Origin: Kondoa subrosea
Lineage: Eukaryota
Reading direction: 5' to 3'
NCBI GenBank assembly: GCA_039545335.1
Contig: BCIN01000002.1
Location: forward strand, 1,067,118-1,131,117
DNA: 64,000 bases
Position 1 is the stretch's first letter. Each line of letters starts with the position of its first letter. Positions 1 through 46,707 of the stretch are shown here, piece after piece. The notes below the pieces were generated by a model that was not told the DNA's origin, made no database searches, and saw nothing but the letters and a program-made list of their open reading frames with translations. Position numbers and translations under genes: made by a program.

Positions 1-4299
<4,299 letters not shown>

Positions 4300-14307: not shown

Positions 14308-15988
<1,681 letters not shown>

Positions 15989-16215: not shown

Positions 16216-19200
16216 TCAAATCGAGACCTCGACCAACCACTCCTCTCCAGCTCCTTGACCTGCTACATCGATCTTGATCAGCGACATCTCGCCCTTCTCA
16301 TCGATCGAGCATTCCACAGGCGCATCATCAATTTTGAAATGAATCGTTCTAGCTTGAGAACTGGGAACGATGAAACCAAGTTGCCCGGCAAAATCGACCT
16401 TGACAAGCAATCTCTGACTTCCATCCTTGACTTGTTCTTGAATCGTCTCTTGCACTTCTTCCTCTATATCCGGGACTACCTCATCTTCTTCCTCTTCGGT
16501 GACAGAATCAGACTCCGCAACAATCGCTTCCTCCTCCACTACTTGACGCTCTTCAGCTGCATTCGTGTCGACAGAGGCTGGAGCCGTTTGATCTTTGATC
16601 TGAGCCGCTTCTTCAGCGACAGATCTATCTTCTGCTTGCTCAACGTTGACTGGCTGATGGCTTTCGCTCGAACCTTGTAACAGAGGTCGCTTTTCTTCTG
16701 ATACACCCTGCAGCCATTTGAAGCTGAATAGGAAGACCATAGCGCCTATACTAGCTTGACACCAATTGAGCAAAGTTCGGATTGGTGAGTGGAAGAATGC
16801 GCTTTGATCGAAAACAGGAGAGGAAGGTACTGGAGAAGGTGATACAGAGCGAAGACCTGTAGCTCCGTACAATGCTGGAGCTCTTCGAGTCGTTCGAGGT
16901 GATTCTTCTGGTGCAGGAATTTCGGCCTCAACTAGTCGGCCTTCCGAGGGCACATCTGCAGGTGCGGCCAAAGCACGAGATGGGATACTCTTGACAGGCT
17001 TGACAACTTGCGGCGCCTTAGATTTTGGTTGACCAGGTCGCTTGACGATCTTGGTAATAGTACGAGATTGCATAGAAGTACCTTCGGTCGAGGAGTAAGA
17101 AGTTACAGCATTCACGCCGCCCAATTTGTCGATCAGGCCGACGCAAGCGATTTGAATCTTTTCCCCTCCCTTCGATGTTATGGTGTGCATGGACACAACC
17201 GATAGCAGATCGAATTCTTTCTTGTGCAGCTCGATGGGAAGAATTGGAGCCGAAGAAAGTGACTCAGTTTTGGCTTCTTGTTCAACATCGAAGTCAGCCA
17301 GCGAAACGACTTGACCGGTTTGTTGCGAGTAAACAGCATAGTCGCCCTTTCCCTGACCGATCAAAGCAGAAGCCACATCTTTGCGGGAAAGAACGTCCAA
17401 AGCGACCGCTTCGCCAGCTCGACAATGCCAAACGCCTAAGACCGCATCTCCAGTTTGCGTGGAATAGCTCATCTTCATAGCTGGTCCATCGTTCTCCGCT
17501 AAATCGTCAATGAAGACAGTCGACGCGAGTCTTGAAGCCTTGTTCTGTCTTGAAGATGAACGGTTCTGTAGAACCTTGACTGAACCATCTTTTCGCTGAG
17601 CTATAATCTTGTTGACGACAGACTGATCGTGCTGATCAATGTTATCGGTAAGGTAGATAGGAGCTGATGAGAAGGTTCGAAGAGCTGCATGAGGTAAGCT
17701 GTAAGGATGTTTAGACTGGAACATATCGAGATCGGGAGTGTAGGACAGAGCTTTCGATAATGTACCGAGGTGAGAGGCATAAGAGAAGTGGAATCGATGG
17801 CTATCTTCAACATCAGGAAAGTAATCGTCATGCTGACTGTAAATCATCAAGAAACATAAGCTTTTCTTGACTGCTATCGTGCACAAGCTACTTACCGGAC
17901 GATCGCACCCTCAGCATTCTGATCAACACCTAGACCAAAAGCGCCAGAGTTGAAGCGACCAGACTGAGACATGCAATGAATCATTCCTTTTCCGAACACT
18001 TCTGCCGCAGTTTGAGTCATCACGGCCTGCCCATGCGTTTTAACCTTCGCTTCTTCTTCGCCTTCAGTCAGCGCATCCAAGAAGCTCTGATTATCAACTT
18101 TGACAAAAGAGATTCCAGTGGATTTGAGGGTAGAGAAATAGTCATGCCAGAATTTTGGCCAATGTTCGAAAAGAGGTAGATGACCATGCGAGGTTTTTCC
18201 CGTCGCCTCTTCGTGAAAGGTACATGCGAAGAGAGGGTATTCTTTGGCAAGAGGCGAAGAAGGGGAAATAGAGCCCCAGTAGCCTTGGAGAGTTAGCCAA
18301 ATGCCAATAGATTTGAAGAAAGGGAATTTCTGCTTGATTATGTCGATACCACGAGCTAGATCATCGATGGACTGGCTTGAAGCTGACTCTTCTTCGCTTT
18401 CGATTTCCGATACTGACATGTTTGGTGAAGTATAGCCAGAGTCAATTGGCTATCTGAAGGATTCAGCTTTTCCAATGCTTCATATATACTAGACTCCATA
18501 CCTGAGCAGACTTTGAAGACTGAACATCGAACCAGCCTGGTCTCGCTCCAAAACTCTGCAACACCTCTTCTTCTCCTTCCTTGATCGTATCCGCCCAACC
18601 ATCGTCAAGTAGCAAAGAATCAAATGAGTCGCTCATTCCCGATTGGACCAAATCATTAGAGTACTCGACCACTTGACTTAAAGTGTAAGGCTTGTTTAAG
18701 CTATTCCAAGTACAAAGTCTCAATCCTTGAGGTTCCACAGGTTTAGATTCAGCTATGGAGCCAGAGTATTGAACACCGTCTGCTTCAGCTACAGCTTTGG
18801 CAGCAACTTGAACCATTTCTTTCAGCAAAGCATCCAATTCCCATTCTTTTGCCCAACCAACTACACACTTCCCTTCAGACGATGTTGCAGAAGGACCACG
18901 TTCACATCGAAGCCAAAGTGGTGTAGTGAGAGTATCGTTCCAGTCGCCTCTGACGGAAGCGAAACAACCATTCGAAGCAAGAGGTAAGAGCGCTACTAAA
19001 GTTTGCGAATCTTTGACATGAGGGAAAACGAGGAGCTGAGTGTTTCGATCTGACGAGACTTCACCTAGATGAGGTAAGAGACGAGGAAGTTGCCATGTAG
19101 TCTTGGTCTGCTCAATCACGAAACCGCTAAGTCCTGCTTGAGGTTGACCAAGAGGGAAAGATTCGATTTGACCCGGTGGAGTACTTTCGTTGACTGGAGC

Positions 19201-30096: not shown

Positions 30097-31239
30097 ATGC
30101 CTTCAAATAAATCCTACCCAGCTCAATCAGTGGATCACCGCAAGAAGTTTGAGGTGATTGCCTGCAATTGGTGTGGCCAAGAAAGAAAGGACATTAACCT
30201 CAAAATTTGTGCGCTCAGTGAGTTCTTCGACCGGGTTTTAAGTTCTCAATCAGTATAAATAGGTTCAACGTGCAAAACAGCTGGCTATTGTGATGCTGTC
30301 TGTCAGCGAAAAGGGCGTCAAACTCTGTAATGTGTAAGTCTAAGCAGTACTGATTGGATTGAATTAAGAACAGACTGGAAAGAACATAAACCCAAATGCT
30401 CCGAGTCCGCCTTGACTGGGCGCTACCTTACTCTCTTACCAGCAGGCTACGCCGATGCTCAAGGTCGATTCTTGCCTGAAAGTATTTGGGGCAAAGATAT
30501 AGATCTGTGGATCCGCGAGCATCAAAGCGCGTTAATTCCGCTCGGTTATCACACTCTTGGCTGTCCAGATCCAGAAGAATACAATTCTAGAGCAGCAGCC
30601 GAACGCAAAGTCATCATATTTAACGTCAAAAGACAACCTGTTGAACCTATCTCTCATCGATTCAAAATCATATCTGAACACACAGGAAGAGAAGTCGCTA
30701 TTCAAAGAGCTTTTCCTGATTCAGCGTTCGCCAGATCACGTGCACAAGTACAAGAAACCCGTACATAAAGAACCTGTGCTGAATCCAAATCCATTGATAT
30801 GACTTTCATCTATCAAGAGATGACTGCACCGGATCAACTAAGTTATCTGATTCTTCTGTATCTTGGGATGGGGCAGAAGCGGTGCGAACTGGCTTTCGAC
30901 CAACTGATCCGCCAAATTGGGTTCCGTCAGTACTCAAAGCTAAGATACACGGTGAACCTATACCGGCAGATCCAGAAGAAGAGGATGAGTTACCAGAGAA
31001 TGAGAGATTGCCAGCAGCATTTAAAGGTTAGGCAACTTAACTCGCGCCTTAGACTGAATTCATTGTTTCGCTTAGGACTGAACATGAAGAGGAAAGGTAA
31101 TGTCATGTGGGGTGGAGATGCTCTAAGACCCGACAACATTCAAGGTGTGTCTCGTATTGTTCTTTGCCGTGTAAGCATCTCAAATATTTTGGGCAGAGGT
31201 GGATGGGCCATTCGGGAAATACACGACGATGACAATTAA
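30097..31239 (+). CDS. MYND-type zinc-finger protein, multi-exon (frame around 30760-30820 unresolved)
   Basis: CNWCG...LKIC|..CKTAGYCDAVCQRK|DWKEHKPKC zf-MYND signature. It ends ~30 bp before the left duplication breakpoint. Confidence 0.65.
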
Positions 31240-31267
31240 TGTTCCGGGGCTGGAGAAAAAATAGCAT

Positions 31268-31309
31268 CGGTTTGAGGTGACTTTGAAAAGGTTGTGTGCT
31301 CTAGAGTAG
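31268..31309 (+). pseudogene. orphan 3' fragment of the NmrA-like gene (RFEVTLKRLCALE*)
   Basis: Near-identical to the last 13 codons and stop of the gene at 45678-46707. The upstream part of the gene is absent. Confidence 0.85.
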
Positions 31310-32159
31310 TTGTGTTTTGTTGTGTTTTGGTGAGTCTGTATCACCGTCTTTGGTTTATACTGATCGATTTCTGAGAAAATCAGTCAAAGAGATAGCTAAA
31401 AGCTTCATCTTCTATGATGATTTGTCGTCTAATGTGTCGTAGCGCTTTCAATTATTGTCGTTCCATGAAGTATGTAACTACCCCGACTGATCGACATGGC
31501 TTCTTTAGTTGTGTATCTGCTCCTCTTCATCCTCCTCTATACCTTCCTTTTCAAACTTCCTTGCTTATGGTGGATATCTTCCTTTCTTTCCTCTTCTGTG
31601 TCTTGTCTGCGCTACGTCTCAATTAGTATCCGGTACAAATTCCGCTGACTCGTGAGCAAAAAGATGCCTGAGTTGATCTCAATGAGTGCTTGTCCGCAGA
31701 GGAAGACAAGTAAGCGATCAAGATAACCTGGCTTACGTGGTTCCGTCAGCGATCCTTGAATTACTTTTGAGATGCTTCCACTGCTCTGCTGCTGTTGACA
31801 GGGCTGCGGATATCGTCTCTGTGGGAGCACATAGAACACCGGGATCAGATTTGAGTTGATGATGATGATGCTCTGCTCAACCTTCTTGCTTGATCTGTGC
31901 AGGCACTGACACAGTTGAAGGTATCAAATCAAAGGTGCGATGATTTCGCTCGTGAACACGAGTCACGATGATATGAGATGCTCGATTGGCTTCGCAGTCA
32001 GCTACAGCCGACAAGCACGGTGCAAGAGTGAACCCTGTCATCCCTGCGCCCGTCGTTCTAGGGCCATATGTCTTACAGAAATATCATTTGTACTTTCTAT
32101 ATGTTACAGATGTTTTGCTCACCTCATCGCACGCAAACCTATGTCTTGCTTACGTAATC

Positions 32160-32282
32160 GCCTCTATAGCTCGTCCGCCTCCTTACCTCACCTGCACGAA
32201 TGAAAGCTCATAATTGATACAGAGTTGGGAGAGCGTACGACTGAAGTTCGTAAGGTCACCCGTTCAAACCGGGTTGGAGGCA
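32160..32282 (+). tRNA. tRNA-Phe(GAA) with a 50-nt GT-AG intron between positions 13 and 14 (exons 32160-32172 and 32223-32282)
   Basis: Joined exons give a 73-nt cloverleaf: acceptor GCCTCTA/TGGAGGC, D stem GCTC/GAGC, D loop AGTTGGGA, anticodon stem TACGA/TCGTA, loop CTGAAGT, T stem ACCCG/CGGGT, loop TTCAAAC, discriminator A73. Confidence 0.93.
32173..32222 (+). other. spliceosomal-type intron within tRNA-Phe copy A
   Basis: GTCCGC donor, GCTCAT branch motif at 32206-32211, ACAG acceptor, 50 nt long. Confidence 0.8.
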
Positions 32283-32289
32283 CCTTATC

Positions 32290-32328
32290 TTTTGCTCGGC
32301 GGTCCTTTGTCACTTGCTTCCTTTTTTT
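32290..32328 (+). terminator. putative Pol III oligo-T terminators (T4 at 32290-32293, T7 at 32322-32328)
   Basis: T-runs begin 8 and 40 nt downstream of the tRNA. Equivalent runs are present in copy B. Confidence 0.5.
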
Positions 32329-32764
32329 ACTCGCTATCCAAGGCATGGGAAGACGGAATACGTGCGAGAGCTCACAGCAAATCATCCTGCTGTGCGCACG
32401 CAACGAGATGCAGTCCAGAGCTCAGCAAAGACAAGTCAATGTCCTTGCGATTTTAATCAATGGACAGGCTCAGGCTTCCAGGCAGTACAGAAAGACATAG
32501 CAATCTCAGTGCAGCGCTCGGGAGAGATATGAGCATATAGGAGGTGAACCTGACCGATTGACATGAAGTGGAAGTTCAGAATGTCGCACAGCCAGAGTGC
32601 AAGACGAGGCAGAGACACCAGTGATTTGGCTCTGCACAGAGAACAAGATGAAAGTACAACAGAAAGGTGGGATGAGATGACCAGGCATCAGGAGTGAATG
32701 TCGAGAAGCGAGAAATCAAGGCGGCAAGAGCAGTAGCAGCAATAACCATTCCGCTGTAACGCTT

Positions 32765-33681
32765 CTACGCAGGAGCCTTCTTCTTCTTATCCCTGTGGAA
32801 ACAGTCAGCTCTGCAATATTTTAAGCGACGAGTGACCGACTCTACGATTTCAACGTTGCTGCAAAAAGACATCAGCAATGGGTACACTAAAACATGACTA
32901 AAACGCACTCTTCTGGTACTTTACCTCCTCCTAGAACAGCAGCGACTTTAGGCGTCTTGTCTTGCAGCATTTCCTCCACCTTGAACACAATGAGCTTACG
33001 AACCTCTTAGCACGATGATTTGGGCTCACCTCGTCAGCCACATCTCCCTGTATCACAATCTCATCTTCTCCCTGGTTGTTCTTGCTCACGGAAGCTCCAG
33101 TAGCAAACTTGTTGGCAAAGAGTTTCGAAGCCTTCTTCAGGTCGATGTCTGTCAGTCAATACCGCTGTCTGATCAGATCTATACTGATTGCAGCTATATG
33201 AACCGACCAAATACTTCCAGACCATGTATAGCAGTAACATACTTGCGCTTATTCCGTTCAATGCGCTTGATGAGGACTTTTGAATTTTGACGCTTCTTCT
33301 CAGCTTTCTCGTCTTTCGCAATAGCTTTGGCTTCCTTCTTCCTCGCTTCCTTATCCAGGGAAGATTCAGCTAACTTTGGCTCGAGTCCAGTTTCACCCTC
33401 TTTGAGTTCTGCTTTACTATTAGGATCTGTAGATGAGGCTTGTGCAGCAGCAGAAGTAGATCCATAGATTGTAGCAAACAGATCAGGATGTTCAGATGAG
33501 AGCCAGGTCTTGCACCTGAGTTTCTACAAGTAAGCGCAAAGATCTGATAATGAGAAATGCGAATTGACTTGGACAGCCTGGATCCATATTGGCAGTACTC
33601 GGGTGGGAAAGTACATATAGCGCAGTATAGAGGTGTCTGCTCTTTAACGATCGTCTTCTGAGGTGTTGCTACTTCTGTCAT
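32765..33681 (-). CDS. TMA22: translation machinery-associated protein 22 / DENR (SUI1 domain), 6 exons
   Basis: [16 protein letters not shown]n motif, [55 protein letters not shown]. Ends DKKKKAPA*. Confidence 0.93.
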
Positions 33682-33780
33682 TCTTGGATGTAATGGAAAG
33701 ACAAGTGCATCATTTGTTACAATCTAAACTCTTCTGCCACACTGCTACACATCTCGATCATCCAAATATCCTCGATATTC

Positions 33781-35311
33781 TTATAGACGTGACTGAGGCG
33801 CTGCCTTGTTGAAATGATCTTGAGCAATATGCAGAACATCTTCAGCCTGCCGAGGAAAGTTCATTAGGTGCAGCATAGAAGTCAAAAGACAACGTACCAT
33901 GCCCCAACTACATTGGTAGCCAGCCTGTGAGATTCAAACCGATGCAGATGAGCAAAAAAACATCTTCAACGTGTCAATCCTCACCGGTCCAATGCCATAG
34001 CAGCTGTCGTAAACTCAGTACAATATACAGTATAATATAGAAGACACTTACTGTATTACAGGCACCGTCACACCTTTCGTATTCGCGCCTCGAGGTAATA
34101 GCGATTTCTTGGTAAGAGGCAGCTTGACCATTTCCTTTTCTAATCTTGGCCCACCTTTCCTACTTGGTCTAAGACCCACGTTGTGTGATATAATCTCTAT
34201 TCCTTCCACCCCATTACCGCTTGAAACGTTTGGATCTAAGGCATAGCATTTCTTGAGTATGTCTTGCGCTAAGTTATAGTCGACTGATAGACTAGGCAGA
34301 ATTTGTCAGCTCAGACGCATGGTGAACCGTGTTTTAAGACCGCTTACTCCCAATTGCCCACCTGGAAGCAACCACCTAGGATCACATTCCCGTTCGGCCT
34401 CGGTATAAGATAAGAAGCGCTAGGTTTTTCTAGACTATATTATCAGCCTCGATACTCACTTCTACGATGATGCAAGACTGACCATCAAGTTTACTTATTG
34501 TAGCCTTGACTTTCGGTGCGTGAACTAATATGGTTTGTCCTCGTATCGGTTCGACCTCTTGATCTTCCACGCCCAACAATGATTTCGCACCCAGAGCTGT
34601 ACAGTTGATGACCATAGAAGTACCAGGTACAGCAGCATAAGCATGTTCTAAGCTTGGCACCGTTCTCTTCGTTATCTGTACTCCACCTTCTCTTAATTTG
34701 TTTGCCAAAGCTTGAAGATAAGCAGGAGCATCCATTGTTAAAGTCATGAATTTAGCTCCGTAGCCAAAAGAAGGTGGGAGTTGAGATTTAGGAATCTCTT
34801 GATAATCCTTGAGGAAATCAGCAAACCAAACTGCTTCATCTGCTAATTCTTTGGAAGCGTAGTAATTGATTCCAGGTGTATCCATGATATGCATGGAAGA
34901 ACCTAAAGCTCTTAAAGCGTTGAAAGTGAATTTCTCCCAACCTTGCATTCGTCTGACAATCATCTGGAGCCTTAGTCAGTGTACGGACTAAATGAGGAAA
35001 CTTACAGATCGTCTTTCTTCGCAAAGGAAGCCCAATTCGCACCCTGTCATTACATTCTCAGCTTGACTCAAATCTTGAATAGTGGGAAACGGACAGCCCA
35101 AGGTGAAGCGAAGCCTTCGACCTGAATCAGCGATTTCCGAGAGTCTGGCATAACGGTGCATACCTTGCGACTGTACATCCTCTGGCAGATCTCTTGCAAA
35201 GATAGAAACATCGTATCCCGCTTCATGCAATTTGGCAGCGCATGATAAGCCGAGTACGCCTGCTCCAAGGACTGTGATTTTCTCTTTCTTGCTGCTGCTG
35301 CTGCTGCTCAT
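33781..35311 (-). CDS. D-amino-acid oxidase, peroxisomal, multi-exon
   Basis: [10 protein letters not shown] dinucleotide-binding motif, [52 protein letters not shown]-terminal PTS1 -SRL*. Confidence 0.92.
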
Positions 35312-35938
35312 TTGTACTGCTTGGTGGTTGAAAACAAAAGGCGAAAGCTTATCAGTTCGAAGCGAAAGCGGGGTAAGACCAATGCATTGACTGAATCAGA
35401 GCGAAGGACAGCAGCTATGATTACATGTGCAGCTATGTCTGATGCTTATCTGAAATCGATCGTTCGTCCTATGGCTGCGCTTGACGCCAACAACAATTGA
35501 AGCTGAACGAAGTAATCCGCGTACGTACCTTGTTCCAACGCCACTTGAGTAGATGTACTGGGAAGAGCAGTGTGAGGTAAAGAAATCCAAGCTAGTCCGA
35601 GTTTCCTTCAATACAGGTGAGTGAATGCGAAAGTAAATCTACGCGACAGCATTCGCTTCGCAAGTCTATGGCGACAGGAACGCATGGAGACTGCCGTAAG
35701 CACGTGAGGAGAAGTACGATAGAGAGATAAAAGCACTGCCTCTCCGACGTGATTGAAATGACATGAACATTGAACAGCCTCAGGGCAAATGGTGACACTG
35801 CCACCATGAATACAGAATATGAAGGGACAGGTCCTCTTCTCCTTCCTCATATCATACTCACTCGCATACATCTGTCCAAGCAAGCGAACGAAACGGAATA
35901 CAAGAGACAACAGAACTTCAAACAGAAACAACGAAACC

Positions 35939-38100
35939 ATGGGAACGAAATCTGGCTTATTGATAGCGGCTGTTGGCATAGCGATCGCTATCCATTCGTA
36001 AGCTTAAAGATACTTCTGCTGGAACCAAACGCTGACAGGCATATCGCAGTCACAGGAAGAAAGCACAACAAGGCAAGATTGCAGCTGGTCCTACTCCGGC
36101 TTATGCTGCTGCTCAAGGGCCTGCATCTTCTTCTGGATTGCTTAGAGATGCTTCTGTCATTTATCATCGTAAGCTGCAACTCTCTTCGGTTGCAATTAAT
36201 TCGCTCAAATGACATGTTGGATGGCCATAGATCTCTGCGAAGGAGTCTTGGATCAACATCTTGAACCTTTCTACCCACCTAATTCGTATCAACTCCAGCA
36301 AATTGCAGACAGGATTGCTCAAACTGGAGCTCTGGAACAAGTAGCTCATGCTTGGAATCTACCACCTCAGTTTGCTTTGGATCTTGTGCGACTAGCTCTC
36401 TTCGATGTCGTCCTTCTCGTGGACGATTCTTCTTCTATGCGAAGCGGGAACAGAATGCAGGAAATGCAGACCATCGTCTCGGAAATTGCCTTCTGCTGCG
36501 GGACTTTTGATAGCGATGGGATTGAGATCAGATTCATGAACTCTAACGATGGAGGTAACGTGAGTTGACGTCTTTTAAGCGTCATATTGTACTGAGGTTT
36601 GAAGGCAGAACATCAGAAATGCTGGAGACGTTGCTGCTGTTTTGGCTCGCAATCCACCCAATGGGTAGGCTCTATGCTTAAAAAGCTGTGCCATACTGAC
36701 AAATACAAGCAGAATGACTCCTATGGGTGCTAGCATGAGGTATTCCTTGATATGACCGGCATTTGACACAAAGTCTGACCTCGTATATAGGGACAAGATT
36801 CTTCGTCCTTTGATCGTCGACAGAGCTCGTCAAGGCACTCTCCGCAAACCAGTACTAGTTCTGACTCTCACGGACGGTGCTGCTTCGGATCGACCAAGTG
36901 ACACAATCGAATCCGTTATCTTCAATGCTAAGCAAGACCTGAAGAACACTCGCTATACTGATAATGCGGCTTCTTTTGCTTTCTCTCAAGTCGGTAATGA
37001 TGAAGGAGCAATTCAGTTCCTGAGTGATTTGGATGATAATGCTCGGGTTGGTGAAATGATTGACGTGAGTCATCGCTTCTGTTTCTTGTAATACAGATAT
37101 TTGAATTCTACTTGATTCAGGTCACTTCCAATGCAGAACATGAAACGAAGCAAGTGTTGAAAGCTATGGACAAAAAGTCCGACAAGTTGCCTGCTGAGTG
37201 GAAAAACATTAAAGATTCAGTCAAATCAGACAGACAAGTCTGGGAAACTCTGTTCAGGATGAAACGTCTTGTTGGTGGTGTGCATTCGGTGAGTTCCAAT
37301 CATTTCTTTCACGGCCGCAGCTCATTATTTTCCCCAGTGGTACGATGCTACGGACGAGAAGAAGAACAGCAAGCGCAGCAGCTGGCTAGGCGGTGATAAA
37401 GATCCAGGTATGCTTCTGGTTTTTGGATCGATCGTCTCGCTCAGTCATTTTCCTGCAGTGTATCGCCCTCATTGGTCTGAGCAAAAAGATTTCCAAGCTA
37501 GATCCGAAGCTCTGCACTCTCAACGCGGCTATCATCCATACCGACCACAAGCTGCAAATGCCGGTTACGCACCGCAACAGCAATACAATGGCCAGCAACA
37601 AGGATCCAGAGATGCTTTTGCTTCACCACCTCCTTCTGCTCCTATGCCTCCTCCTATGCAACAATACAACTCAGGTTATCATAACAATTCGGGATATAAT
37701 AGTGGATATAATCAAGCTCCACCACCTCAGCAGAACTTTGGATTCCCTCAGAACGATTACCAATCTAATGGATTTCCTCCACAAGGCGGATACGACCAAC
37801 AGAACAACGGTTACTCGCAGCAGCAACCTATGCAAGGTGGCTTCCAACCAATGCACGGAGGCTTCCAACCAGCAAATCAAGGTGAGTTTCTACTCCGCAA
37901 TTTCTTACGCGATAAATTAGGACGCGCTGATTTGTTGATGTCTCTCAGCTTATGGCGCTCCTCCTGCCGCTCAAGGCTTCTCTGGACCAGACCCTTACTA
38001 CAATGGCGCACCGCAGCAACAGCAAGGCTATGGGTATCAGCAGAATCAAGCGTATGGCAATCAACAACCGCCTTTCAATTTCCCGACACCTCAGTATTAG
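35939..38100 (+). CDS. von Willebrand factor A domain protein with Q/N/G/Y/P-rich C-terminus, multi-exon
   Basis: MIDAS motif VLLVDDSSSM, DSDGIEIRFMN, TPMG, KPVLVLTLTDG, FSQVGND..AIQFLSDLD. Hydrophobic N-terminus. Stop TAG 38098-38100. Confidence 0.8.
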
Positions 38101-38331
38101 CTTGCCCCCATAGCCCTTGTAAAGCCATTGATGTACCATTGTAGTAGTGCTGTTCGCTCTTGTGTCTGCAGAACTTTTCAGATGTCCTTCTGATCTTTGT
38201 AGTCGAAAATCTTTATAAACTCGAAACCGCCGAAACTCATCTTGCCCTCAAACCGTTCTCTTTCTTCTGGAAGGCGAACCTCTCTTTTACACTGCGCTTG
38301 AGCTGACTACACCTTTGTGACTGCCACAACA

Positions 38332-41300
38332 ATGGGAGATGCTAATCAAACGTGAGCCGCAATGTCTTGCATTACTCAGATGTACATGAGTCGCTGACCT
38401 GCTTGTCTTGCTATGCCACAGTGAACGCATTGTGATCTCTGATAACACTCCTACCGATGGCTCAGAAGTTCGTATGCTCTCGCTTCATCTGTTCTCATGC
38501 ATGTCTGAAACTGACTTGTTTCCTTATGCTAGCTCTCGCTCGAAGGCCAGAAACCATCAGTTGTGGTCAACGAACTAAGATTGGTGTCAATGCCTTCTCA
38601 GGTGAGTTTCTGCATGTTTCAGTAACCGTAGCATGTTAGCTAACTTCATGCTGCGGTGTGATCAGTCAAAGAGCTACCTCATTTCATCGTCTTCCACTAT
38701 GATGTATGTTCTCTCCTCTGACCCATTTAGTCTCTCTTCTCTTACGTACCCAAACAGATTCAAATCACTCCCTTGAGAAAAGGCGAAACCAGTCGCCGCA
38801 GCACTGACAAAGATCTTCCACCTGAAGTCTCTCGTCGAGTTGTAGAGTACATGACTCAAACTCAACGTATGTTTGGTGACGAGAACATGCATGTCGGTTT
38901 CGACGGAAAACGAAACCTGTACGCTCGCGACAAGCTGGCCGAAGGCGATAACAAAGCTTTCGAGTCGCAAGCTGTGAGTCTGTTTGATTGCGCTTCTGGC
39001 TAGTTGTTCATCAATATTGACCTGCAGTGGGAACTGACGATTCCTGACGATGAAGAACCTGAACAAAATGGTCATTCGAATGGTCGTTCTCATGGTCGTC
39101 CTAATGGTCACTCCAATGGTCATTCGAACGGTGATTCAAATGGCGATGCCAAACCTCGAGGTCAAGGTTTCAATGTGCGAGTGAGTTTTCGCTTATTGTC
39201 TTGCTTTGCCTTTTTTCATTGATCACCAATAGATGAAACATGTCGGTACTATCGACTTGAGCGATCTAAACCGTTTCCTAGGTGGATCAGTATCTTCTAC
39301 CGAAGGTATTCAGCTCTCGTTGATGGCTTTGAACGTCTTGATCAACACTATGCCTGCCTACACTTACCCAAGCAAGAAGACTTCTTTCTTCCCTCCTGAC
39401 ATCCAACGTGACTCTACTGCTCAACATGCTGCCAGTAAGTCATTCTTTCATACCTGGATGTGTTCAATTGGTGTGACAGTTGTACCTTACAGGTTCTAGA
39501 GGTCGAGGTGGTGGAGTGAGATCGTCCTTTGCTTCTTTGAGTGCTAGCTGATGCAATTCACAGCGAGGTGGTAGAGGTGGTGGACGAGGTGGATTTGGCG
39601 GAGGCGGAGGACTTCCTCAGTCGACTGAATCTGGTGCTTTTGCCTTGTCAAAGGGTATTGAGTGAGTTTCTCGTATGCAGTGCTATAGATTCTCTTGACG
39701 TGTGGAACTTCTCACAGAGTTTGGCGTGGATACTTCACGTAGGCTTGAGGCTGCCATGGCTATGGCTACTCTAATTTCTTGCTATGCAGCTCTTTGCGTC
39801 CCACGTTGGGCAAGCTAATTGTCAACGTTGATATTACTCATCAGGCATGTTTACCAGATCTCGACTCTTCTGCCATTGCTGATCTGCGAACGATTAAATA
39901 CAGCCCTTCGTCTCTGCTGGTTCTATGATCCAAGTCGCCCTCGCTATCACTGGTGGTCGCGATCCTCGCAACTTGGTCTCTGAAATGTCTGATCGTCGTC
40001 GTGGTTGGATCGAGCTCGAACGAGTTCTCAAAGGCGCTCAAATCAAGTGCCGATACGGTGCTTCTAGCACAGATGTACATCGTCGTAAAATCAAGGAACT
40101 CGGTAAAGTCGGTGCCAATAAGCAAATCTTCGAGTTCAATGGTACTCGCATGTCTGTGGCCGAATACTGGCAGCGTACTTACAACTCTCGTCTCGAGCAT
40201 CCCGATCTACCTTGTATCCGTGTCAGTGCTACAGCTTGTGAGTAATAACGTGTTTATCTTTTTTTTAATGCTGATTTTCTGCGCACAGGGTATCCAATCG
40301 AAGTTTGCGATCTTATGGTCGGTAACAAATACAATCGTACTCTTTCGCCAGATCAGGTAGCTCAAGCGATCAAGTTCACTACCGTCAAACCTCGCGAGCG
40401 TATGGAATTCATCAACAAGATCAGATTCCTTTCTCCGACTACCAACCCTGCTTTGAAAGATTGGGGAATGGATTTCGAAACTAGATCGATGGAGATCGAG
40501 GCTACCATCTTAGACCCTCCTACTATCAAGCTTAAGGAGTATGTACTTTTACTGATCCTCCCGAGCCTGCATTGAATACCCGCGTCAGTCACCGCGGTGG
40601 TCGCGATCGAACTCTGTGAGCCTTTCTCAGTCTATCGATCGAAAGGCCAACTTCTGACTTCCTTCTAGCACTCCTGCAGAAGGTGCTTGGAACCCAACTC
40701 GAGAAAAGCTAGGCTTCTTCAGACCTGCTGTGCTCAATCACTGGGCTGTTGTCGTCTTCAAGGACGAACGCAACAGTTTCTTTGCTCGAAGAGAAGCTCA
40801 ACAATCCATTCAAGAGCTGTGCCGAGCCATGTCTGAATCTGGCATGGATGTCACCAACACCGCTCCCGAGATTATCTTCAGTATGTCTGCGTTCTGTTAC
40901 CTTGTTCTCCCCTTTAATCTCTATTGCCAGCCGGCAACGATGAATACAACGATGTTGCTCAAATCTTCAAGAGAGTCGGCAAAGATCACTACACGAGATA
41001 CAGCGCAGTCCCTCAGCTTATCGTATGCTACTTGGCTAAGCAAAACTGCCCCGACTATGCTGCCATCAAACGCTTTGGTGACATCGAACATGGGGTGGCT
41101 ACTCAATGCATGTCGATTGAAAAGGTCAAGACCAAGGGCAATGGTGTTTACTACGCCAATGTCGCTCTCAAAATCAATCCTAAGTTGGCTGGTGTCAACC
41201 AAATCCTGGACTCTGGATCTTTGCAAGGCTTCGATGACGTCCCTTCAATGATCTTCGGCGCTGATGTAACTCACCCACCTCCTGACTCTCGTGACCCTTC

Positions 41301-42441
41301 AGTCTCTGCTTTGGTCGGATCAATGGATCGATATGCAGCTTCTTACGGTACCACTACTCGAATCCAGTCTGCTCGTGTTGAAAACATTGAGAACCTGGAA
41401 GACATGTGCACGGATTTACTCAAGATGTTCGAGCAGAAGAACAATCGCAAGCCTCAACGAATCATCGTATACCGAGACGGTGTCTCTGAGGGTCAATTCC
41501 AGATTGTTATGCGCAAAGGTCCGCTCTCATGTTTCTCCACTGATCTAACGGAATGTTAATGTCCTATTGCAGAGGTTACTGCTTTCAAGGCTGCATTGCA
41601 AAAATTCAACAATGGTGGCGCTCCTATAAAGATCACTTATATCGTTGCTGCCAAACGCCGTATGTCCCCGACCTGTCTTGCATTTTTACTTGAATCTGAG
41701 CTGTACATCAGATCACTTCCGCTTCTTCCCTACGAGTGACCGTGACGCAGAACGCAGCGGCAATGTCAAGGCTGGTACTGTGAGCTGGTCTCTTGCTTGT
41801 CACGTCTAAGCATAATACTTACAAGAGGCTTTGTAGTGTATTGATCGCGATATCACAGATCCTACTTCTTGGGACTGGTACCTGCAATCTCATGGCGGTT
41901 TATTGGGAACCTCTCGAAGCTCGCATTACACCGTTCTGCTCGGTCAGTCATTGCAGCAGCTATCTCATCGTTCGCTGACCTGGACATGCATACAGATGAG
42001 AACAAGTTCTCGGCCAATCAGATTACTTCGCTTTCCTACAACTTGTGCTACTTGTACGCTCGCAGTACTCGTTCCGTCTCTATCGTCACTCCTTGGTCAG
42101 CTTATTTGCTCTTTTGCTAATCTATTGAGAACGCTAAATTCGTGTTCAGCTATTACGCTCATCATGCTTGCGTTCGTGCCAAGTTGTTGGCTCAACCTCA
42201 AAATGAAGATGCTCAGTCTTCCTTCTCAAACGCTTCACGCGGTTCTCAAGAGTCTGCTGAGCGTCAAAAGGTGAGTCGCCTCGGTTGCTAATGAGATGAA
42301 GTCTGACCTCGGGATACAGCAATTGGATGCTTACAACTCCAATATGAAGCCTCTTCACAACAAGATCTCTGATGTAAGTCCTGATTCATCAGTCGCTCTT
42401 TCACTAGCTTATTCCTCTTACAGACTCTTTACTTCCTTTGA
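38332..42441 (+). CDS. Argonaute (QDE-2/Ago1-like), ~20 short introns
   Basis: N domain ([19 protein letters not shown]), LWRGYFTSLRP...VNVD, PAZ ([25 protein letters not shown]), MID ([20 protein letters not shown]), PIWI ([62 protein letters not shown]). Ends TLYFL*. Confidence 0.96.
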
Positions 42442-42668
42442 TTGGGAAATCTCTGTACTATCTTTGCTCTCTGTATAATATTGGGTCGTCGGTTTTCTGG
42501 GATTGGATAGACTACGGGAAGAACAACAGGATTGAAATGACAAGGCTTTTATGTCAATATTTGCATGCCACTGACGCTGCTGTCTGGCTTATACGGTAAT
42601 CCTCCGTTGCCTTTTCGCGCAGGACATTTTGACCAGATTCGGTCTCAATTCTCTACAACGGAGCTGAA

Positions 42669-43468
42669 GATGAAGCGTTCCACAAGACGAATCAAGTTGG
42701 ACTCAGCCAGGGACAACAGGCAGATCCTTCGCTCTTCGTCTGATGAAATCGTCATGCAACATTTAGTGAAGCTGATTGTGACCAACTCTCGAATCAATCG
42801 TATAGCTTACGAAGCAAAGGAGACTCAAGACTTCATTGAGGCCGAAGAGCAGCTCTCGAATGCATTGAGGGAGAGACTTGCTTTGCAAAGGCAACGACGC
42901 GACGACGTTAGAGCACAGGCTTTGGCAGAGCGCCGTCAAGAATACCTCGCAGCGGGTGCGGAACGCGATAAAGCTATCACAGCCTATCAGCGACAGCCTC
43001 AACGCTATGAAGACATCGATACAGTCAGCTTCGAGGCAGCTAATGGCTCGTATTCGAGCTGTCGAGCAAAATGACCAATTCTGGGACAAGTCTATACAAG
43101 ATGCTACAGATCGATTCAATAGTCATGTAGGCGAAAAGAAAGCTGAACACGCTCAGGTCCTAAAGATGTCAAGCGAAACCTGCTTGTCTAGAAAAGGGGT
43201 TTCCTGTGTCAAGGCGCGCGACATTATAGCCGAGGCTGAACGTTCGTTGCGCGAAGCTGGCAATGTCTACATCATCCAAGCAGATCGAGTAGAAAGATCT
43301 GTATTCTACGCCAGGCAACGAGATCCTTTACAGCGGCTTCAGTATCCGGCTTTATTCCAAGATGAATGTGAGCTGCAAAGGACTTCTGGTCTGAGTTACT
43401 GTCTGACTGTTTTGATAGTACGAGAGCTGATCATCCTCAATCTAGCATTTCGCAAGGAAAGTCAGTAG
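42669..43468 (+). pseudogene. coiled-coil hypothetical protein with an apparent 1-nt frameshift near 42985
   Basis: Helical ORF ...ERDKAITA continues as ISDSLNAMKTSIQSASRQLMARIRAVEQ only in the next frame. No intron signals are seen at the junction. Confidence 0.45.
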
Positions 43469-43735
43469 AATCAAAGCTTCTCGATTCAAAGTCTCCCGGT
43501 GTCAATTACCTCTATTCCCGTTGTACAACTTTGCGATCATCTTTCTTGCACCCTCATCGTTCGCTATTCCCTACTTATGGTGAATTGCGAGTCGAATCTG
43601 TTTTGTGACCATCCGCGATATTGATCCTTTCTACCATCAATCTTTGCTTGTTCGACTGTTGCAAGGTAGGTGCACCCAGAATAGGCTTCCTCGGGCCGAT
43701 GAGTAGCGCAGGATTCGGAAGTGCTCGGCAAAAGT

Positions 43736-44262
43736 ATTGAACGGCACAAGCGCAAGTATGTTACTGCTATACATGGTCTGGAAGTTTTTGGTCAGTTCAT
43801 ATCTTTGCAATCAATATGTAGTTGATTGTCATGAGTTTGAAACGACAGACATCGACCTGAAGAAGGCTTCGAAACTCTTTGCCAACAAGTTTGCTACTGG
43901 CGCTTCCGTAAGCGAGAACAACCAGGGCGAAGATAAGATTGTGATACAGGGAGATGTGGCCGATGAGGTGCGCCTAGGTCATTCTGCTGTGGGCTTCTCA
44001 AGCTCATTATATTTCAAGGTTGAGGAAATGCTGCAAGACAAGACGCCTAAAGTCGCTGCTGTTCTAGGAGGAGGCAAAGTACCAGAAGAGTGCGTTCTGA
44101 TCAGTGTACCAGAAGAGTGCGTTCTGATCAGTGTTCTAGTGTACCTTTACTGATGTCTCTTTTGCAGTAATGTCGAAATCGTAGAGTCGGTCTTTTGTTG
44201 CTCAGTATGACACAGAGCTGACTTTTTTCCACAGGGATAAGAAGAAGAAGGCTCCTGCGTAG
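43736..44262 (+). pseudogene. 5'-truncated TMA22/DENR copy (SUI1-domain exons only)
   Basis: [33 protein letters not shown]...DKKKKAPA*. The start codon and N-terminal Zn motif are missing; frame and splice sites are intact. Confidence 0.8.
44079..44132 (+). repeat. 27-bp perfect tandem duplication spanning a splice donor
   Basis: GTACCAGAAGAGTGCGTTCTGATCAGT x2. Single in copy A. Confidence 0.9.
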
Positions 44263-44734
44263 AAGCGTTGCAGCGGAATGGTTATTGCTGCTGCTACTGC
44301 TGCGCTTGCTACCTTGATTTCTCTTTTCTCGATAGTTCTGTCTGGTGAAGTCGTCTCACCTCTTTGTTGTGCTTCTTCTTGTCCTCTGCACGTGAGCCAT
44401 ATTACTGGTGTCTCTGCTTTGTCTTTTACTCTGGCTGTCCGACATTCTGAACTTCCACTTCATGTTCATCGGTCAGATTCACCCCTTATATGCTCATATC
44501 TCTCCCGAGCGCTGCACTTGGATTGCTATGTGTCTCTGGACTGCCATGGAAGCCTGGCCCTGTGTATTTTCACAACCGCAAAGACATTGACTTGTCTTTG
44601 CTGAGCCTCGGGACTGCATCTCTTTGCGTAGGCATGATCCGCTGTTTGTTCGCGCGTTGGCTGCCTATCTCCTCATGCTAAAATAGCGAGCAAAAAAGAA
44701 GCACGAAACAAGGACCGCCGAGCAAAAGATAAGG

Positions 44735-44857
44735 TGCCTCCAACCCGGTTTGAACGGGTGACCTTACGAACTTCAGTCGTACGCTCTCCCAACTCTGTAT
44801 CAATTATGAGCTTTCATTCGTGCAGGTGAGGTAAGGAGACGGACGAGCTATAGAGGC
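44735..44857 (-). tRNA. tRNA-Phe(GAA) copy B with a 50-nt GT-AG intron at 13/14 (exons 44857-44845 and 44794-44735)
   Basis: Exons identical to copy A. Intron 44795-44844 is identical at 49/50 nt (donor GTCCGT). Confidence 0.93.
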
Positions 44858-45677
44858 GATTACGTAAGCAAGACATAGGTTTGCGTGCGATGAATTGAGC
44901 AGATCACATAAGACATATAGACAGTACAAATGATATTTCTGTAAGACACATGGCCTTAGAATGACGGGCGTGGCATGAGAGCGTTCACTCTTGCTCCGTA
45001 CTTGTCGGCTGCAGCTGACTGCGAAGCCAATCGAGAATCTCGTGTCATCGCAACTCTTGTTCATCAGTGAAATCATCGCACCTTTGATTTGAAACCTTCA
45101 ATGTCAGTGCCTGCTCAGATCAAGCAAGAAGGTTGAGCAGATCATTGCGTGCATCATTCAAATCTGACACCGATGTCCAAACATAGCCAATGTCCACAGC
45201 CTTGTCAGCAGCAGCCGAGCATCGAAAGCTCTCAAAGATAGGCTCAAGAGTTCTCAGGCGGTTTCATGTAAGCCAAGTTACCTTGGTCGCTTACTTGTCT
45301 TCTTCTGCGGACAAGCATTCAGTGAGACCAACTCAGGCATCTTTTTGCTCACGAGTCAGCGGAATTTGTACCGGATACTAATTGAGACGTCGCGCAGACA
45401 AGATATAGAAGAGGGAGAAAGGAAGATATCCGACATGAGCAAGGAAGTTTGAAAAGGAAGGCACAGAGGAGGATGAAGAGGAGCAGATACACAACTAGAG
45501 AAGCCATATCGATCAGTCGAGGTAGTTGCATACCTCATGGAACGACAATAATCGAAAGCGCTGCGACTCATTAGGCCAGAAGTCATCATATAGAAAGGAA
45601 GGCTTTAGCTATCACTTTGACTGAGAAAATCGATCAGTATAAACCAAAGACGATGATACAGACTCACCAAAACACAA

Positions 45678-46707
45678 CTACTCTTGAGCACACAACCTTT
45701 TCAAAGTCACCTCAAACCGCTCGGGCTCTCTACCCAAATACCTCTTCAGCTCATCCGTCACCACACATGTCTCTCCTTGTCGAATAGCCGCGAAGCTTTC
45801 TGCCCAAAGAGGAGCTATTTCGCCTAGATTCTGCTTGACTTCTTCGCTATTGATGTATTCCTCCATAGAGACTTGCTTGATTTCGAACTTCCTTCCAAGG
45901 ACATTACTGACAATGTTTGCGGCTTCTTGTAGCGAAAGAGATTGTGGACCACTGAGAATGATCTTGTGGCCATTCCTGAATTCTTTGACATGTGTAGAAT
46001 AGCGGAATAAGATGTTGGCTGTAGCTTCTCCCAGTTCAGGTCTGTGAACAAAAGCAACGCCCGGCCCACTTCCATCATGCGGAATTCGGATGTCTGTTGA
46101 TTGTGACTTGGGAGAGATGAAACCTAGATACATGGAAAGAGCTGAGCTTGAGTAGAGACCATGGCGGATTATCATATAAGAGAAGTCGGCATTTGTAGAT
46201 GCGATGCGAGCAAGATAAGTCTCAGTATTGATGTGGGCGCGCATCACAGCTGCCACGGTAGTATCGCCATAACCAGCATATGCGAGTGAAGAGTAGACGA
46301 TCTGCAAGCTGGGCATGAGTCTATGCAGAGGGAAGCAACGCATTGCGCTCACTGTCTTGACACCTTGAGCTACGGCAGCATCGATGGCTTGAATGTGCAA
46401 TTTGGTTCTAGCGTCCCTCGTTCAGTATTGACCGAGGTCTAAGACACTAGAAGCACCTCAGATCCACATCGAACGAAGGGTACGAGATGAGATTGAGCAC
46501 ATCGATCCCCTTGAAGACACCTTCCAAACTAGCAGCATCTTCGAAATCGCCTTTGCGGACGATAGCACCCTTCTCAGCTTGTTCTTTGAGTTTGTCGGGA
46601 GTTCGAGCGATCAGAACTACCTTCGATGGTTCGGTAAGGATTAAGAGATGCTGTAAAGTCAGATTGCCGACATTGCCAGCGGCTGGAAAGATACCAATCG
46701 TTGCCAT
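45678..46707 (-). CDS. NmrA-like NAD(P)-binding atypical SDR, multi-exon
   Basis: MATIGIFPAAGNVG, VRKGDFEDAASL..VFKGIDVLNLIS, AIDAAVAQGVK, YSSLAY, IIRHGLYS, VHRPELGEATA, LSGPQSLSLQE. Confidence 0.85.

Follow-up and report, generated by a model that had tools for sequence, protein, structure and literature searches.

Candidate spliceosomal introns in the D arm of tRNA-Phe genes from Kondoa subrosea and from metagenomes

By what route could a nuclear transfer RNA (tRNA) be matured if its gene is interrupted within the D arm by a segment resembling an intron of messenger RNA (mRNA)? This question is raised by positions 32160-32282 of a 64,000-nt stretch of Kondoa subrosea DNA (contig BCIN01000002.1 of assembly GCA_039545335.1; hereafter, the window), where an earlier sequence-only reading had noticed a tRNA-Phe gene with anticodon GAA carrying an apparent spliceosomal intron. 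In the standard account, introns of nuclear tRNA genes are found at position 37/38 and depend on a protein endonuclease plus a ligase for their removal, and the spliceosome acts on mRNAs and on a few small nuclear RNA (snRNA) and ribosomal RNA (rRNA) precursors. The analysis presented here suggests that the window quite likely contains a pair of functional nuclear tRNA-Phe(GAA) genes, both interrupted by a U2-type GT-AG intron that falls between tRNA positions 13 and 14 and would be removed by the spliceosome. It is also, on balance, probable that fungi of at least two phyla, namely a basidiomycete and Helotiales-like ascomycetes, make their cytosolic tRNA-Phe, possibly its sole supply, by way of spliceosome-removed introns in the D loop (in one case, in the T stem).

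The insert and the mRNA introns around it

Upon removal of the insert from the first locus (copy 1; Table 1), a 73-nt tRNA-Phe(GAA) was called by ARAGORN, and every pair of its four stems (21/21) is standard. The mature sequence carries G20, the anticodon GAA, and A73, which are the Phe identity elements. Thus, the proposal that excision of this segment yields a complete tRNA-Phe with all four stems paired was confirmed, and the insert itself is as it had been described: 50 nt long, with a GT donor, a YAG acceptor, and a branch-like A positioned 12 nt from the 3′ end. The junction of copy 1 cannot be slid by one base either way, as the flanking letters differ; therefore, the GT and AG ends are not an artefact of the chosen cut. 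The insert lies between tRNA positions 13 and 14, within the D arm and the A-box region, with the A box taken as tRNA positions 8-19 and the B box as positions 52-62, following the passage of PMC3978253 in which the two boxes are placed.

On the intact 64-kb window, ARAGORN reported no tRNA, whether its option for canonical introns was switched on or off. Likewise, Rfam gave no family at gathering thresholds in the window and no tRNA match, even at E ≤ 1, on 31000-46000. The expectation that standard tRNA finders would miss this gene was therefore borne out, with both tools silent on the intact DNA. As a chance control, all GT..AG segments measuring 35-120 nt on either strand of the window (42,189 in total) were removed one at a time, and ARAGORN was run on each resulting construct. 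Only 10 tRNA calls spanned a junction; all 10 (10/10) were tRNA-Phe(GAA), and all fell at two loci, namely the insert of copy 1 and a segment on the minus strand at 44795-44844. Run across the whole window, the search for split tRNA halves that the sequence-only reading had advised hence returned the original locus and a second copy of it.

To compare the insert with the mRNA introns of the same DNA, an intron set was inferred from the window. Coding segments were delineated with a codon-usage filter trained on 13 long open reading frames (ORFs), and frame-consistent GT..AG segments between adjacent same-strand coding segments were taken as intron candidates, which were ranked by an iterated score for donor, acceptor, and length that has no branch-site term; the tRNA loci were excluded. 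From 38 junctions, 30 introns were kept (≤65 nt, score ≥7). These introns are 47-62 nt long, and the 50-nt insert falls within that range, in agreement with the earlier view that its length is typical for this genome. Their donors include GTGAGT (11 introns) and GTCCGC (2 introns, at 41519-41572 and 15721-15767), plus others. A CTNAY motif located 8-20 nt from the 3′ end is present in 15/30 of the inferred introns, vs 846/8,916 (9.5%) of the other GT..AG segments of 45-62 nt. The tRNA insert has CTCAT with 12 nt after its A, followed by the acceptor CAG. It scores 8.69 for donor, acceptor, and length, which places it in the lower third of the set (range, 7.0-14.5); this score is reached by 0.85% of 42,247 other GT..AG pairs.

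The individual precedents named for the splice signals also held when examined. The intron at 41519-41572 in an Argonaute gene uses the donor GTCCGC, and its identity as an intron is confirmed by an in-frame stop and by gaps in the tblastn alignment to a homologue. The intron at 35094-35044 (minus strand) in a DAO gene uses GTCCGT, and its excision gives one continuous frame across the junction, while the intron at 37289-37337 in a vWA gene bears GCTCAT with 13 nt after the A. Both GTCCGC and GTCCGT are donors of real mRNA introns within the same 64 kb.

Table 1. Positions in the window of the two split tRNA-Phe genes and their signals, identity between the arms of the duplication that carries them, and handles of the split loci from metagenomes
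Feature	Position	Strand	Description
Copy 1 exon 1	32160..32172	+	13 nt; tRNA positions 1-13: acceptor 5′ strand, U8, A9, D-stem 5′ strand GCTC; 5′ half of A box
Copy 1 insert	32173..32222	+	50 nt, GTCCGC...GCTCATAATTGATACAG
Copy 1 insert signals	32173-32178; 32207-32211; 32220-32222	+	donor GTCCGC; CTCAT with branch-like A at 32210; acceptor CAG
Copy 1 exon 2	32223..32282	+	60 nt; tRNA positions 14-73: D loop, anticodon GAA, T arm with B-box-like GTTCAAACC, discriminator A
Copy 1 5′ leader block	32124..32159	+	36/36 identical in copy 2; putative leader or promoter role
Copy 1 downstream T runs	32290-32293; 32322-32328	+	T4; T7; candidate Pol III terminators, predicted from sequence
Copy 2 exon 1	44845..44857	-	13 nt
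Copy 2 insert	44795..44844	-	50 nt, GT-AG, donor GTCCGT; 49/50 identical to copy 1 insert
Copy 2 exon 2	44735..44794	-	60 nt
Copy 2 downstream T runs	44724-44727; 44692-44697	-	T4; T6; putative function, read from sequence
Arm identity, 5′ flank			710/858 (82.8%)
Arm identity, 3′ flank			792/1019 (77.7%)
Arm identity, 36-nt leader			36/36
Arm identity, both exons			73/73
Arm identity, 25-nt trailer			25/25
Arm identity, insert			49/50
Split metagenome loci			L004, L005, L008, L009, L012, L013, L015, L017, L020, L021, L024, L027, L030, L032, L033

The second copy and the search for an uninterrupted gene

Removal of the insert from copy 2 likewise restores a tRNA-Phe(GAA), as called by ARAGORN. 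The sole difference between the two inserts is at insert position 6, where C in copy 1 corresponds to T in copy 2, such that GTCCGC becomes GTCCGT; this change at +6 toggles between two donors that are both found in local mRNA introns. The two copies are part of an inverted segmental duplication of ~2 kb (31268-33285 vs 43713-45719), consisting of 14 repeat pairs with ~10.4 kb between the inner ends; besides the tRNA-Phe genes, it carries the 3′ portion of a SUI1-domain (DENR-like) gene. The duplication arms are 78-95% identical, and sub-blocks other than the tRNA reach 94-100% (e.g., 31600-31699 and 33100-33149). At the flank divergence of ~20%, ~10 changes per 50 nt would be expected, and the insert shows 1, suggesting that selection, or else gene conversion of a tract of 184 nt, has preserved it. 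Membership of the insert in a repeat or introner family was also considered and was rejected, as a blastn-short search against the window matched only its own two copies.

The sequence-only reading had further called for a check of whether an uninterrupted tRNA-Phe(GAA) gene exists elsewhere. Contigs from two DNA runs of one sample, one of which may be the source of the window itself, were aligned to 32060-32380 at ≥80% likeness. Neither a joint across the insert nor an intron-less copy was found among these contigs over that region and at that likeness, with the proviso that contigs and filters can hide one. An unbranched 129-nt contig spans 32179-32307 and so takes in the trailer, exon 2, and the greater part of the insert; another contig is the variant of copy 2, with C>T at 32178 and diverged flanks, and no other piece lies over the tRNA. 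The word depth of the shared contig is 113.8, vs 58.4 and 58.8 for the flank contigs; depth is not a copy number, and the approximately twofold value fits a collapse of the two window copies into one contig. Because an intron-less gene with the same exon 2 would force the contig to branch at the boundary between insert and exon, these contigs moderately support the presence of the insert in both of the tRNA-Phe genes that can be detected.

Split tRNA-Phe genes in metagenomes

Metagenomes were scanned with a pattern consisting of the 5′ strand of the D stem, any 38-68 bases, and the D loop through the Phe anticodon loop, leaving the insert unconstrained; since the pattern required the Phe anticodon, the scan tells nothing on other tRNAs. 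It yielded 34 loci: 15 are split in the D loop (Table 1), and the remaining 19 are ordinary tRNA-Phe genes that were matched upstream by chance, their apparent "insert" ending in a normal D-stem strand. All 15 split loci (15/15) can be read as GT...AG between tRNA positions 15 and 16, two bases further along than the cut used in the scan, and upon this excision ARAGORN calls tRNA-Phe(GAA) in 14/15. The exception, L027, has an extra 55-nt GTAAGT...CAG insert (713-767, plus strand) in the T stem, between positions 51 and 52. A canonical 37/38 intron is also held by 13/15 of the split loci, which thus combine two intron kinds per gene, and L027 contains three introns of two kinds: a D-loop GT-AG intron, a T-stem intron of GT-AG type, and a canonical 37/38 intron. 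When left intact, the 15 loci gave no ARAGORN call (11 loci), an aberrant call (2 loci), or a truncated call (2 loci). These loci are related by descent and do not represent 15 independent events.

The 15 loci reduce to 10 distinct D-loop introns of 49-52 nt, with donors GTAAGT, GTAGGT, GTGGGT, GTAAGA, GTACGA, GTAGAT, and GTAAAT. The branch motif is CTAAC in 9 of these introns and CTGAC in the other, its branch A being followed by 10-12 nt, and the acceptor is YAG in 10/10. When the 10 introns are aligned, the sole columns shared by at least 9 of them are GTA, CTAACA, and AG, and the median pairwise identity of the interiors is 28%. Conserved signals within otherwise unrelated interiors would be the pattern expected if selection acted on the splice signals alone. 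None of the metagenome introns has a run of ≥5 T, and T runs follow the genes inspected, namely L013, with a T9 ~40 nt downstream, and L027 (790-804), with a T run that begins 8 nt past the tRNA. The ~40-nt trailer of L013 contains a hairpin ahead of the T9 (736-790). In most of the split metagenome genes, an AATAAG or TATA-like element is located 25-40 nt upstream of the tRNA.

Next to L013, a dehydrogenase fragment shares 83-94% identity with Helotiales proteins (e.g., of Lachnellula, Hyaloscypha, and Cadophora), and hence at least one metagenome group is ascomycete. An ORF conserved in the flanks of L005, L021, L024, and L032 (metagenome group 1) gave no protein relative. The position of the window intron, 13/14, is absent from all 15 split metagenome loci, suggesting that the window intron is probably an independent gain. 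Seven loci (L008, L013, L015, L017, L020, L027, and L033) have an exon that ends in AC rather than AG before the GT, and in L030 it ends in AT; in those seven, GT-AG splicing would therefore give C at tRNA position 15. The same seven loci have A48, the tertiary partner of position 15, and a cut two bases earlier would restore G15 but do so without GT-AG ends.

Routes of removal

Removal of the insert by a protein enzyme, either SEN/TSEN acting independently of the mature domain or some other nuclease, followed by tRNA ligase, would be a route modelled on the ectopic introns of Cyanidioschyzon, nucleomorphs, and archaea. According to the relevant passages of PMC10946435 and PMC3978253, all nuclear tRNA introns described so far are removed by protein enzymes in this manner, and the canonical 37/38 intron in 13/15 of the split metagenome genes means that the endonuclease pathway acts on the same precursors. 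Such endonucleases are associated with bulge-helix-bulge (BHB) motifs, and a convincing BHB fold at the junctions had been named at the outset as a finding that would count against spliceosomal removal. In a register scan for a four-pair central helix ending ≤3 bases before each cut, plus flanking helices, with an assumed geometry and no positive control, the best register at the insert junctions had 3/4 central, 1/3 outer, and 0/3 inner pairs. No BHB appeared in the minimum-energy fold or in the fold constrained to the cloverleaf, where a one-base bulge adjoins the 5′ cut and the 3′ cut falls within a short helix. The lack of a BHB motif at either junction carries moderate weight, and with its location at 13/14 rather than 37/38 the insert does not resemble a SEN/BHB-type intron. 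Some ectopic introns of the Guillardia nucleomorph are also without a defined BHB motif, as stated in the part of PMC3978253 that treats them.

Comparison with known endonuclease substrates points in the same direction. Like canonical introns removed by SEN/TSEN and ligase, the window insert interrupts a nuclear tRNA gene and needs precise removal; unlike them, it lies at 13/14 (and the metagenome introns at 15/16 or 51/52), with no anticodon pairing and no bulge at the cuts, and the GT, branch, and AG signals play no part in canonical endonuclease splicing. The ectopic BHB-type introns of Cyanidioschyzon merolae, the Guillardia nucleomorph, and Crenarchaeota, as far as they are covered in the section of PMC3978253 devoted to them, are closer in kind, since they too occur in the D arm or other non-canonical positions, disrupt the A or B box, and defeat standard tRNA finders. 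However, they are defined by, or attributed to, the BHB motif and are without GT, branch, and AG signals, whereas in the window insert no BHB was found and the signals are present (PMC3978253, same section). Cutting by a protein enzyme would moreover leave unexplained the exact GT and AG ends, the donor hexamers common to local mRNA introns, and the branch motif at its usual distance, as well as the reduction of conserved columns in the metagenome introns to GT(A), CTAAC(A), and AG with interiors at random-level identity. This route is thus considered unlikely.

Another possibility retains the spliceosome and concerns the transcript on which it would act: the precursor could be a longer, capped RNA polymerase II (Pol II) transcript from an upstream promoter, with the split A box reflecting a lost promoter function for RNA polymerase III (Pol III). 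Window and metagenome genes alike have an interrupted A box, the 36-nt leader is identical between the copies, TATATG is located ~60 nt upstream of the tRNA in both, and the spliceosome would be better served by a capped 5′ exon of greater length. Nevertheless, the B-box region is uninterrupted, and T runs resembling Pol III terminators follow both copies (T4/T7 in copy 1, T4/T6 in copy 2) and metagenome genes. Furthermore, no intron has ≥5 consecutive T (runs of T in either window insert are two at most), and the locus lies between genes, where no neighbouring coding segment on the same strand could provide a host transcript. A Pol II precursor is hence regarded as quite improbable.

Very improbable is the reading of both loci as pseudogenes, descended from a tRNA-Phe gene that was killed by an insertion and then duplicated, with a working gene elsewhere: although the A box is split and the genome reading is confined to 64 kb, the exons are without defect and 73/73 identical between the copies despite ~20% flank divergence, the sample contigs show no intron-less junction and no other piece with ≥80% likeness over the tRNA, a GT together with a donor of the local type, a branch motif, and a YAG would not come with a random insertion (such a score is attained by only 0.85% of GT..AG pairs), and other fungi retain similar split genes in which the signals are conserved and T runs follow downstream.

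Removal by the spliceosome, as first put forward in the sequence-only reading, agreed with every prediction that could be tested at the level of sequence (ends, length, donors, branch, no BHB, escape from tRNA finders, and no intron-less copy in the sample contigs), and the second copy and the split tRNA-Phe genes of other fungi lend it further support. In this mechanism, the locus would be transcribed, with Pol III as the simplest choice, by way of an upstream element and the intact B box, and the downstream T runs would terminate the transcript. Pol III is assumed because the B-box region is intact, the T runs are terminator-like, and the introns have no long T runs; the conserved 36-nt leader and the upstream TATATG would suit either polymerase. 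The spliceosome would then recognise GTCCGC or GTCCGT, the CTCAT branch site (A32210), and the CAG acceptor, and the insert would leave as a lariat, with GCTC being joined to AGTTGG. Folding of the tRNA, including formation of its D stem and loop, could take place only after this removal.

Several considerations weigh against spliceosomal removal. Excision, the lariat, and dependence on the spliceosome are all inferred from DNA. The 5′ exon comprises just 13 nt plus a leader, and Pol III transcripts carry no cap; moreover, transcription by Pol III is not assured, as the A box is broken up by the insert. Pairing with U1 would be weak, given C at donor positions +3 and +4 and an exon end, CTC, that departs from the usual exon consensus; the donor context of the DAO intron is equally weak. 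As for the comparisons, the 30-intron set is self-trained and holds some false members. The BHB scan rests on an assumed geometry without a positive control, and the missing motif is not decisive, given the ectopic introns of the Guillardia nucleomorph that are likewise described without a defined one (PMC3978253, in part). The contigs may conceal an intron-less copy, and a gap in contigs proves nothing. Finally, the near-identity of the two window introns could stem from gene conversion of the 184-nt tract rather than from selection.

Spliceosomal introns are known from other non-coding RNA genes; what would be new here is such an intron in a tRNA. The U6 snRNA is a Pol III transcript, and Rhodotorula hasegawae belongs to Pucciniomycotina. 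As related in the passages of a 2018 review on hosts of mRNA-type introns (PMC5855946), the U6 intron of Schizosaccharomyces pombe is removed by the spliceosome, many yeasts likewise have mRNA-type introns in U6, a single fungal U6 gene can contain up to four mRNA-type introns, and such introns occur in U1, U2, U5, and U6 of R. hasegawae; rRNA genes are listed there as well, and tRNA is not among the hosts in that list. Like the window introns, the fungal snRNA introns are short, have canonical donor, branch, and acceptor signals, and reside inside small, structured non-coding RNA genes, in the case of U6 a host taken as transcribed by Pol III; Rhodotorula is also among the genera of the window's best protein matches (Pucciniomycotina, beside Agaricomycetes). 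Unlike the snRNA introns, those of the window have a tRNA host, a 13-nt 5′ exon, and a split internal A-box promoter. The origin by reverse splicing that has been proposed for U6 introns is not obviously applicable, because a tRNA is not located at the spliceosome's active site. Spliceosomal introns have reportedly also been described in ascomycete rRNA genes (Bhattacharya et al. 2000, cited in PMC5855946); these share with the window introns the GT-AG type and a gene not transcribed by Pol II, and at least some of the split metagenome tRNA-Phe genes are also ascomycete, but the host RNA and its polymerase differ. A search of full-text literature, from whose coverage most subscription journals fall outside, found no description of a spliceosomal intron in a tRNA gene, in accordance with the earlier impression that this route had not been reported; one phrase match read "non-spliceosomal tRNA introns". 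To our knowledge, there is no previous report of such an intron.

If spliceosomal removal holds true, the standard account of nuclear tRNA splicing would be contradicted, with tRNA being a new class of spliceosome substrate and the spliceosome a third route of nuclear tRNA splicing beside endonuclease and ligase. It would follow that splicing is possible for a highly structured RNA, probably a Pol III product, whose 5′ exon is very short, and that supply of an essential tRNA, hence translation capacity, is tied to the capacity for mRNA splicing. The route would have gone unseen because tRNA finders do not call such genes. Indeed, annotations of such fungi may seem to be without tRNA-Phe, since ARAGORN and Rfam miss the window genes and ARAGORN misses 11/15 of the metagenome genes, with aberrant or truncated calls at the remaining four.

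With regard to genomic setting, both loci are intergenic; the closest coding sequences are a plus-strand gene whose end lies near 31240 and, from ~32930, the minus-strand SUI1-domain gene. The window is nuclear fungal DNA: it encodes Piwi, DAO, and SUI1 domains, and the best matches of its Piwi exons, at 44-54% identity, are to Pucciniomycotina (Microbotryum, Phenoliferia, and Leucosporidium) and Agaricomycetes. These matches indicate a basidiomycete, probably one of Pucciniomycotina, for which the protein database searched contains no closely related species. A sub-threshold Rfam match to RF04354 (Plastid-ycf2 5′UTR RNA), the sole one at the locus at E ≤ 1, covers 32177-32283 on the minus strand, with 27.2 bits against a gathering score of 65.7 (E, 0.05); located on the strand opposite to the tRNA, it is most likely a tRNA-like chance resemblance. 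The second GTCCGC intron of the inferred set, at 15721-15767 on the minus strand, belongs to a gene with a raffinose-synthase-like domain whose upstream exon is at 16225-17874, as judged from reading frames alone.

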